Assembly (NCBI GenBank): GCA_963665815.1 | Contig: OY762463.1 | Span: 736,001 to 800,000 of the forward strand | Direction of reading: 5' to 3' | Source: Candidatus Cloacimonadales bacterium | GTDB lineage: Bacteria; Cloacimonadota; Cloacimonadia; Cloacimonadales; JAIOQZ01 | DNA length: 64,000 nt | Part shown: one piece after another, positions 61,901 through 62,310 of the stretch | How positions within the stretch are numbered: position 1 is the stretch's first letter | Layout of the letters: each line of letters opens with the position of its first letter | Program-made: the position numbers and the translations under genes | The notes under the pieces: generated by a model | What the model saw: the letters and a program-made list of their open reading frames with translations, nothing else | Databases searched by the model: none | What the model was told of the DNA's origin: nothing

Positions 61901-62310
61901 ATGCTTCAGCTTAATTATACCCCTAATGAAAATAATGTAGATTACCCCCCTGTAATTTACAATACCCCTACAGCTGAACGCATGTTTAACAGAGCAGGAG
62001 CCCCTAACTCCTGCTCTTTCCCCTCAGCGTTTAAAAGTAACTTGAAATATAAAGCATTGATTACGAAATACCCCTATACCCCTAAATCTGCATTTTACTA
62101 CCCGGTATCATGCAAAGATAAGTTTTCAATGCTGAATGAGAACGGATTTTCCCCTAAATCCGACTCTTATTTCGAAGTTAGTTTCATACATAATCTACAC
62201 CGGAGTCTAATTACCCCTAATGAAAATAATGTAGATTACCCCCCTGTAATTTACAGTACCCTAAACTCCGAGTGTAAGATTATCGGAGCGGGATCCCCCT
62301 ATCCCGCTCC
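61901..62310 (+). ncRNA. Candidate structured RNA with repeated CCCCU loops
   Basis: Nested stems, 11 unpaired C4-6U motifs, an internal ~45-nt duplication, and a G.U pair that favours the + strand (see findings). Confidence 0.65.

Follow-up and report, generated by a model that had tools for sequence, protein, structure and literature searches.

A conserved, structured RNA element exposing eleven C-rich motifs behind a type IX secretion cargo operon of a Candidatus Cloacimonadales bacterium

The element described here lies around positions 61895-62320 of a 64,000-nucleotide (nt) stretch of DNA, called the window in the following, from contig OY762463.1 of a Candidatus Cloacimonadales bacterium. 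The source genome (G000) is complete, 3.96 Mb long and has 36% G+C. Directly downstream of two genes coding for cargo proteins of the type IX secretion system (T9SS) the + strand of the window holds a conserved, structured element, present in a single copy, in which eleven short C-rich motifs are exposed. We think there is about an even chance that this element, made from the 3' end of a sigma54-driven T9SS cargo mRNA, regulates by multivalent base-pairing in the manner of RNAIII and LhrC. A structured RNA with C-rich loops was first proposed at this place in a first-pass annotation of the window, and the helices and motifs which it listed are all found where it placed them and are recovered by folding programs.

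A comparison of the fold with dinucleotide shuffles, which the annotation had suggested, came out clearly in its favour. The minimum free energy (MFE) of the + strand of 61895-62320 is -121.4 kcal/mol compared to -62.6 ± 5.9 kcal/mol for 100 such shuffles, none of which folds as well (z -9.96). The - strand of the element gives a z of -6.6, and the flanking stretches fold weakly (z -2.3 and -1.4). The eleven C4-6U motifs start at 61920, 61945, 61965, 62001, 62020, 62071, 62079, 62151, 62214, 62239 and 62295 on the + strand; their commonest context is UACCCCUA, and they can be summarised as (U)ACCCCU(A). They had been assigned to loops and junctions, and all eleven are predicted to be unpaired, with mean probabilities of 0.84-1.00 compared to 0.41 for the entire RNA. 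The sequence CCCCT is rarer than expected in the window (33 occurrences on both strands, expected 44 ± 7), and 12 of the 33 fall in 61920-62349, all on the + strand. The whole genome has 834 copies of CCCCT on the + strand and 766 on the - strand, and the element, with 12 in 430 nt, is the sole cluster of this density; the next densest holds 6, and its C-runs are paired with G-runs. C is found 109 times and G 58 times in the 426 nt of the element. Both BLAST and a covariance model find it once in the complete genome, so the many copies expected of a repetitive extragenic palindrome (REP) or a miniature inverted-repeat transposable element (MITE) are not there. As the annotation had supposed, no known family accounts for the element: Rfam 15 gives no match in the whole window at gathering thresholds, and the 10 matches obtained at E<=10 are all far below gathering (the best has 22.1 against 44, LhrC 17.4 against 110).

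The other CCCC-dense places in the genome are homopolymer tracts or other sequence, with no arrays of loops. The second-densest CCCCT cluster (G000:C1:3433267-3433406) is different in kind; it consists of repeats of about 60 nt in which the C-runs pair with nearby GGGG in the fold. Tracts of 7-14 C are found at about G000:C1 1437850, 1440420 and 2326630, at the same place in three look-alike stretches which seem to be coding on the opposite strand, and are candidate sites for phase variation of paralogous genes by strand slippage. An array at G000:C1:3455816-3456201 (- strand as printed) is made up of a unit of about 36 nt (GGGCAAGACTCTCACTTCGTTACGAGCTCT...), present five times head to tail between C-runs.

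Two relatives allow selection on the element to be followed. One is the DNA of a sister species in the same genus (G001), 94% identical over the whole element and with the same neighbouring genes; the other (P0003, from an ENA assembly, 73% amino-acid identity) is known only as protein, and its base pairs had to be inferred from the amino acids. G000 and G001 differ at 24 of the 426 nt of the element, while their flanking genes differ at 18-25% of the positions, i.e., the element is 3-4 times better conserved. Codon positions 1, 2 and 3 differ by 7.1, 2.8 and 6.4% (10, 4 and 9 of 141) compared to 10, 7 and 36% in one neighbouring gene and 15, 10 and 50% in the other. The substitutions in the element thus show no codon periodicity, and its synonymous sites are 6-8 times more conserved than those of the neighbouring genes.

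In the consensus structure of G000 and G001 eight pairs have changed and none is broken. Three of the changes are compensatory; from G000 to G001 the pair 62048/62169 goes from U-A to C-G, 62143/62162 from C-G to A-U, and 62197/62275 from A-U to G-C. In the remaining five only one base has changed; the + strand still pairs, by way of G.U, where the - strand would have C-A mismatches. This bears out the preference for the + strand, which had been read from a G.U pair in the repeated stem. Two substitutions, at 61936 and 62205, break terminal pairs of helices in the MFE structure of G000 itself. The amino-acid changes in P0003 fix three more compensatory pairs through codon positions 1 and 2 (62088/62117, 62091/62112 and 62198/62274), and 4 of its 123 pairs are necessarily broken. 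The unpaired regions are conserved as well, with 13 changes in 180 nt. The three compensatory changes, the intact consensus pairs and the covariation between the two units described below all support a conserved structured element at the RNA level. The objection that homologs might conserve only the protein sequence, which the annotation had raised against its own proposal, does not hold, as the dominant selection falls on nucleotides and pairing.

The RNA consists of unit 1 (P1, P1a and P2), a central domain and unit 2 (P4, P4a and P5), all on the + strand. Unit 1 (61899-61985) is closed by the 13-bp helix P1 (61899-61911/61972-61985) around an interior loop and the hairpin P1a (61937-61960). 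The latter has a stem of 9-10 bp (61937-45/61952-60) and a CCCCCU loop, and its pair G61940.U61957 has become A-U in G001. The interior of the unit contains a single-stranded stretch of 15 nt, CCCCUAAUGAAAAUA (61920-61934), which is invariant in G001 and of which a second copy (62214-62228) lies in the interior loop of unit 2. Hairpin P2 (61991-62017; stem 61991-62000/62008-62017, 10 bp, loop CCCCUAA) is a paralogue of P5, with three compensatory pairs between the two; three positions of its loop are changed in G001, where CCCCU is still present. The central domain (62029-62189) has the closing helix 62034-49/62168-84 and the inner helices 62053-60/62126-33, 62086-93/62110-19, 62096-99/62104-07 and 62143-49/62156-62, the last one with the loop UCCCCU. 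Its junction carries the twin motif AUACCCCUAUACCCCU (62068-62083), which includes an 11-nt complement of the apex of a GGGG-tetraloop hairpin found in the leaders of six T9SS cargo genes. Unit 2 (62190-62283) is closed by the 15-bp helix P4 (62190-62204/62267-62283) around an interior loop and the hairpin P4a (62230-39/62246-55, loop CCCCCU). Then follows P5 (62285-62320), with a stem of 10 bp of which 7 are G-C (62285-94/62301-10), a CCCCCU loop and the tail ACAUUUUAUC, a terminator-like 3' end. P5 is identical in G001, and together with its tail it passes a consensus scan for intrinsic terminators, i.e., termination is predicted. Conservation stops at about 62332, some 20 nt past P5.

A covariance model of unit 2 (62186-62322) matches unit 1 (61893-62027) with 79 bits, and the RNA is therefore an internal duplication. 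A module of 45 nt is common to the units; the closing stems P1 and P4 differ in sequence, and their pairing is kept. The annotation had noticed this module in two different closing stems, and missed that the two halves are a full structural duplication, 294 nt apart. When the two units of G000 and of G001 are aligned as four rows, 95.8% of the cells pair and 9 pairs are changed on both sides, although the alignment was fitted to the model and somewhat favours structure; slid controls give 30-48% pairing and 0-2 both-side changes.

The element has been found in a single genus only. Beyond G001 no relative was obtained by BLAST over 61 genomes, by the covariance model over 150 genomes or in the GTDB species set. 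A six-frame search with a protein profile in 203 genomes of the order gave one extra match, which is marginal (E 0.007, 3 stops). From the JGI metagenomes 315 candidate stretches were retrieved and none was confirmed, and a search for proteins of 30-76 amino acids, which might reveal broken frames, found none. Four sequencing runs were aligned to the element, all of them as DNA contigs; the two from sediment contain the G001-type variant and no new sequence. The regions beside the best relatives of the downstream kinase in the neighbouring genus have neither a C-run cluster nor such an element. Of the eleven motifs ten retain CCCCU in G001, in one case displaced by a single base, while the eleventh has become CCCCA.

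The setting of the element is that of the end of an operon. The two T9SS cargo genes (57107-61892, + strand), identified by Pfam matches to CarboxypepD_reg repeats and Por_Secre_tail, are preceded by a sigma54-type promoter (GG-N10-GC), TGGAAGAGGATTTGCA (57038-57053, + strand), 53 nt before the first of them. The promoter has two mismatches to the sigma54 consensus; its GG and TTGCA are kept in G001 within an intergenic spacer which is 70% identical. The stop codon of the second cargo gene is at 61890-61892, and the ATG of the element follows 8 nt further on. The location behind an operon with a sigma54-type promoter agrees with the first annotation, and this promoter is conserved. The 46 nt upstream of the element are conserved no better than coding sequence, which would fit co-transcription with the cargo gene. 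Upstream of the cargo operon lies the gene for a Ser/Thr-kinase/TPR/sigma54-activator protein (52650-56822), and downstream of the element a histidine kinase gene (62416-63924, + strand, Pfam match) is followed, beyond the window, by the gene for an NtrC-type sigma54 response regulator. In the genome Por_Secre_tail is matched at least 150 times, with 150 of 184 candidates scored, and the sigma54-type promoter 29 times within 150 nt of the start of an open reading frame (ORF), often ahead of very large genes, which suggests a large sigma54-controlled repertoire of secreted proteins.

Some other features of the window were observed in passing. The junction of the two cargo genes with the start of the second gene (58900-59300) is 96-100% identical between G000 and G001, compared to about 70-85% for the rest of both genes; its fold has a z of -2.3, and a recent exchange or a conserved signal may be the cause. 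At 62385-62418 the GAGG ribosome-binding site of the histidine kinase gene can pair with a CCUC 6 nt upstream in a small hairpin, which is not significant (z -1.4). A 643-amino-acid protein coded at 49308-51239 (- strand) combines a TIR domain at its N terminus with some ten TPR repeats, an architecture like that of a possible defence or signalling protein.

In the reading which we prefer, the 3' end of the cargo operon mRNA would be present as a + strand RNA of about 430 nt ending at P5. The duplicated units and the central domain would hold the eleven (U)ACCCCU(A) motifs single-stranded, and the motifs with their flanks would pair with 5' leaders that contain G4 in the mRNAs of other T9SS cargo genes. 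The putative target leaders contain a GGGG-tetraloop hairpin and/or a G-rich Shine-Dalgarno (SD) site, several of them behind sigma54-type promoters. Ribosomes would be kept from binding to a paired leader, so that expressing one cargo operon would lower the output of its rivals, and the eleven sites could allow a single RNA to bind several leaders simultaneously. The annotation had also considered an anti-SD function. The 3' end of the 16S RNA reads CCUCC, and the ribosome-binding sites of this genome are canonical, being GGAG/AGGA in most genes, with GGAG ahead of 854 of the 2183 long ORFs. CCCCU is thus not a general anti-SD sequence, and that part of the idea is not supported. The RNA would therefore address the subset of G4 leaders and not ribosome-binding sites in general, and the other part of the idea, pairing with G-rich ribosome-binding regions, gains support from the predicted targets.

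The reverse complement of the motif, TAGGGGTA, has 20 other sites in the genome, six of which lie 20-45 nt before the start of a T9SS cargo gene. In all six leaders TAGGGGTA forms the apex of a hairpin of 6-8 bp with a GGGG tetraloop, and a second G-run lies at the ribosome-binding site. The hairpins are at G000:C1:2886490-2886550(+), 2979978-2980040(-), 3391833-3391890(-), 3786997-3787050(-), 3789854-3789910(-) and 3793026-3793085(-). Their tetraloops are closed by AUA/UAU, their stem sequences differ, and the large T9SS cargo genes downstream code for proteins with FG-GAP repeats and/or Por_Secre_tail. Of 42 G-loop hairpins in the genome, nine precede an ORF start by no more than 60 nt, and the six described here are among these nine. 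Two of the leaders, those of the genes starting at 2886550 and 3391833, stand behind close matches to the sigma54 pattern; the leader at 2979978 has a near match by eye in which GG reads GA, and two of the other leaders sit within a tandem operon. G001 has four GGGG-tetraloop leaders (loci L078, L080, L081 and L083), and a genome from the neighbouring genus has none among its nine copies of the 10-mer. One of these cargo families (g2886) was recovered, out of the eight genomes of the family, from G000 and G001 only. Apart from any role as a target, the hairpin may be a leader element not described before. In the neighbouring genus, genome G007 (loci L086, L087, L091 and L093) has four copies of an identical stretch of at least 45 nt ending ...CATGATAATTATAGGGGTAT, probably the end of a repeated mobile element.

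When duplexes were predicted with 3,450 leaders, ranks 1-5 and 7 for the twin motif AUACCCCUAUACCCCU went to the leaders with the six hairpins. The repeated 15-nt stretch, CCCCUAAUGAAAAUA, is perfectly complementary to the leader and SD site of a VWA/VIT/FlgD_ig gene at G000:C1:181263, which is its best duplex in the same set (-24.7 kcal/mol, z -7.4, rank 1; the next has -18.0). This site lies 34 nt behind a sigma54-type promoter, TGGAAC-N5-TTGCA. None of its bases has changed in G001, whereas the two species disagree at 5 of the 10 aligned positions immediately before it (TAAGATTAAC in G000). Complementarity of at least 11 nt including GGGG is found at 45 sites in the genome, 12 of them in leader windows, which make up 3.2% of the sequence space. 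The top 30 predicted leaders include 9 Por_Secre_tail ORFs compared to 1.3 expected (p 2.6e-6) and to 1 in a control with reversed segments. At least 9 nt of complementarity is present in 3 of the 29 sigma54-type leaders. A plain list of 114 candidates with AGGGG-type ribosome-binding sites gave no clear picture.

Several points weigh against the regulator proposed here. The covariation is made up of few events, from two DNA copies and one relative known only as protein. The target prediction used crude ORF and start calls of our own and ignored intramolecular structure, and the six hairpin leaders fall into about three or four paralogue groups, i.e., they are non-independent. Perfect 15-mer matches to the element are not rare (12 windows, about 9 sites, genome-wide). 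The T9SS cargo ORFs as a whole have no significant excess of G4 SD sites (12 of 148 compared to 104 of 2157, p 0.08; 148 of the 150 listed Por_Secre_tail places were used, one with a stop and one 92-amino-acid frame having been dropped), and the counts of the 10-mer ATAGGGGTAT across 41 genomes are not distinctive. Only the four loop G of the leader hairpins are free, so longer pairing would require the leader stem to open. A search for RNA sequencing runs containing the element found none; transcription and transcript ends are predicted from the DNA. Finally, the model does not explain why an ORF coincides with the element.

This ORF of 141 codons (61901-62326, + strand) starts with ATG, has AGGA 6 nt upstream and spans the element exactly. 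It was overlooked in the first-pass annotation and is already a hypothetical protein in public gene sets. The RNA could have a dual function, in which ribosomes, probably re-initiating after the cargo stop codon, translate the element and thereby unfold the scaffold of C-motifs, and untranslated or processed copies fold and act; the peptide itself might or might not be of importance. We hold this to be less likely than not, and worth keeping in mind as a minority view. The frame has no internal stop compared to 9 and 20 in the other two frames; a frame as open as this was found in 1 of 20,000 dinucleotide shuffles and in 33 of 30,000 structure-preserving shuffles. It is open in G001 and in P0003, the latter with an in-frame insertion of one codon, and the distance of 294 nt between the two units is in frame as well. 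However, the frame in G001 would remain open by chance with p ~0.34 after 24 changes, and P0003 would have escaped detection had its frame been closed. The 16 non-synonymous and 6 synonymous codon changes between G000 and G001 are a neutral ratio with no excess at the third position, the codon-usage score is at the 1.3rd percentile of real genes, and AlphaFold2 with the three-row alignment gives a pLDDT (predicted local distance difference test) of 33. The product has no Pfam match and no match in the ESM Atlas, and a profile search of 1.84 billion representatives returned only its own cluster and weak matches to large proteins. The start codon is inside helix P1, and a terminator-like hairpin comes ahead of the stop codon. 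Taken from the sequences, the openness of the frame is probably not an accident, and the ORF may be translated, perhaps coupled to the upstream gene. The pattern of changes nevertheless suggests that the amino-acid sequence is not what is conserved, and that the dominant selection is on nucleotide sequence and pairing.

A more elaborate form of this idea, which we find doubtful, makes the RNA a translation-gated hub. Its frame would be kept open throughout for ribosomes coupled from the cargo gene before it, which would unfold it during translation of the operon mRNA, and free copies would capture the GGGG hairpins and G-rich sites of rival sigma54-dependent cargo mRNAs. If true, it would set up a hierarchy among the secreted or surface proteins made. 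It would also be the first regulatory RNA described in Cloacimonadota, with a new kind of recognition between C-loops and G-tetraloops in the control of secretion cargo; a limited literature search turned up no regulatory RNA for this phylum.

The C-motifs could also bind a C-specific protein (Rho, or one with a KH or RRM domain), with the RNA titrating or loading it as a sponge or platform. Rho primary sites prefer C-rich, G-poor RNA, the composition of the element agrees with this, and the genome encodes Rho and one RRM protein; eleven near-identical motifs of 8-9 nt are collected in one scaffold whose unpaired regions are conserved as well. Yet the flanks of the motifs differ and match different leaders, which a single protein site would not need, and the RNA is highly structured, unlike the Rho loading sites that we know of. 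We consider this explanation unlikely. Quite improbable, too, is a purely cis-acting function, in which the element would stabilise and terminate the cargo mRNA at its 3' end or would serve the kinase/regulator operon as a long regulatory leader or attenuator. The element does sit between two operons, with the conserved block ending about 20 nt past P5, a hairpin resembling an intrinsic terminator. A stabiliser, however, needs neither eleven conserved exposed motifs nor conserved junctions, no alternative antiterminator pairing was seen, and the relatives of the kinase in the neighbouring genus are without such an element.

It is very unlikely that we are dealing with an ordinary small protein gene whose mRNA is incidentally structured and has no function as RNA. 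Public gene callers report the gene, and the ORF statistics given above and the ribosome-binding site would fit one, but it lacks a third-position excess, genome-like codon usage, a family and a fold. The strong conservation of its synonymous sites is at variance with such a gene, and the compensatory changes would need radical paired replacements, e.g., Ala to Val with Cys to Tyr, or Ser to Phe with Asp to Asn. An array of DNA-level sites (TACCCCTA boxes) for a transcription factor of the neighbouring two-component or sigma54 systems, suggested by 12 boxes of the same orientation upstream of the kinase/NtrC-type regulator operon, can be virtually dismissed, as the spacing is irregular (8-72 nt) and nothing but pairing within the single + strand accounts for the compensatory and G.U changes.

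If the base-pairing regulator is the right explanation, control of the very large T9SS cargo repertoire would include an RNA at the end of one operon which cross-regulates other cargo genes through multivalent C-motifs and a previously undescribed leader element, the GGGG-tetraloop hairpin, and an annotated hypothetical protein would mainly be an RNA gene. The strong selection at the RNA level alongside a full-length open frame is an oddity.

The element resembles the CsrB/RsmZ sponges in that a scaffold presents the same short motif in loop after loop; in those sponges the motif is GGA and is bound by CsrA. CsrA is encoded in the genome, but a sponge of this type does not fit, because motif and strand do not agree: the + strand shows C-runs, GGA occurs in only about 3 of the 12 - strand copies, and the G.U changes point to the + strand. 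The resemblance to RNAs with C-rich loops which act by base-pairing is closer. Staphylococcus aureus RNAIII carries the delta-haemolysin gene as a coding frame. Like the element it is large (about 0.5 kb) and multi-hairpin with several C-rich loops, which bind the mRNAs of surface and secreted proteins by pairing with their G-rich ribosome-binding regions (PMC2837412, PMC4132741). There is no sequence or Rfam relationship between the two, and they belong to different phyla. RNAIII has about three motifs, UCCC, compared to eleven here with UACCCCUA as the commonest form; its ORF is a short part of the RNA and not the whole, and it has a quorum-sensing promoter of its own, whereas the element lies at the 3' end of an operon.

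LhrC and RsaE (RoxS) of Firmicutes are G-poor like the element and have several equivalent C-rich sites, found in loops including that of the terminator and in a single-stranded stretch; any of these sites can bind a G-rich SD sequence, and one RNA may bind several mRNAs (PMC4132741). With a length of about 100 nt they have 2-3 sites, the Rfam model of LhrC reaches 17.4 bits here against a gathering threshold of 110, and a GGGG-tetraloop hairpin ahead of the SD site is among the targets predicted for the element. CcsR RNAs are described as repeated hairpins with C-rich loops which originate from the 3' untranslated region of an mRNA (PMC8034643), an origin which the one proposed here would resemble. 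The alphaproteobacterial CcsR/cuckoo RNAs are separate tandem small RNAs (sRNAs) beside a DUF1127 gene, and their loop motif, CCUCCUCCC, is a true anti-SD. The element is one nested RNA with CCCCU in the form (U)ACCCCU(A); with a T9SS cargo gene upstream, no DUF1127 neighbour and no CCUCCUCCC loop motif, it does not belong to this group. The actinobacterial 6C sRNA binds several mRNAs through C-rich loops with no known chaperone (PMC6486639), and the present genome is likewise without Hfq; 6C has two loops and is widely conserved, compared to eleven motifs, one genus and no Rfam match here. With its motifs predicted to be unpaired, the element is a candidate for the functional class of base-pairing sRNAs with C-rich loops, which is not a homology family; all Rfam families are below their gathering thresholds. 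By analogy it would work like RNAIII, LhrC, RsaE or 6C, and it is a member of none of these families.

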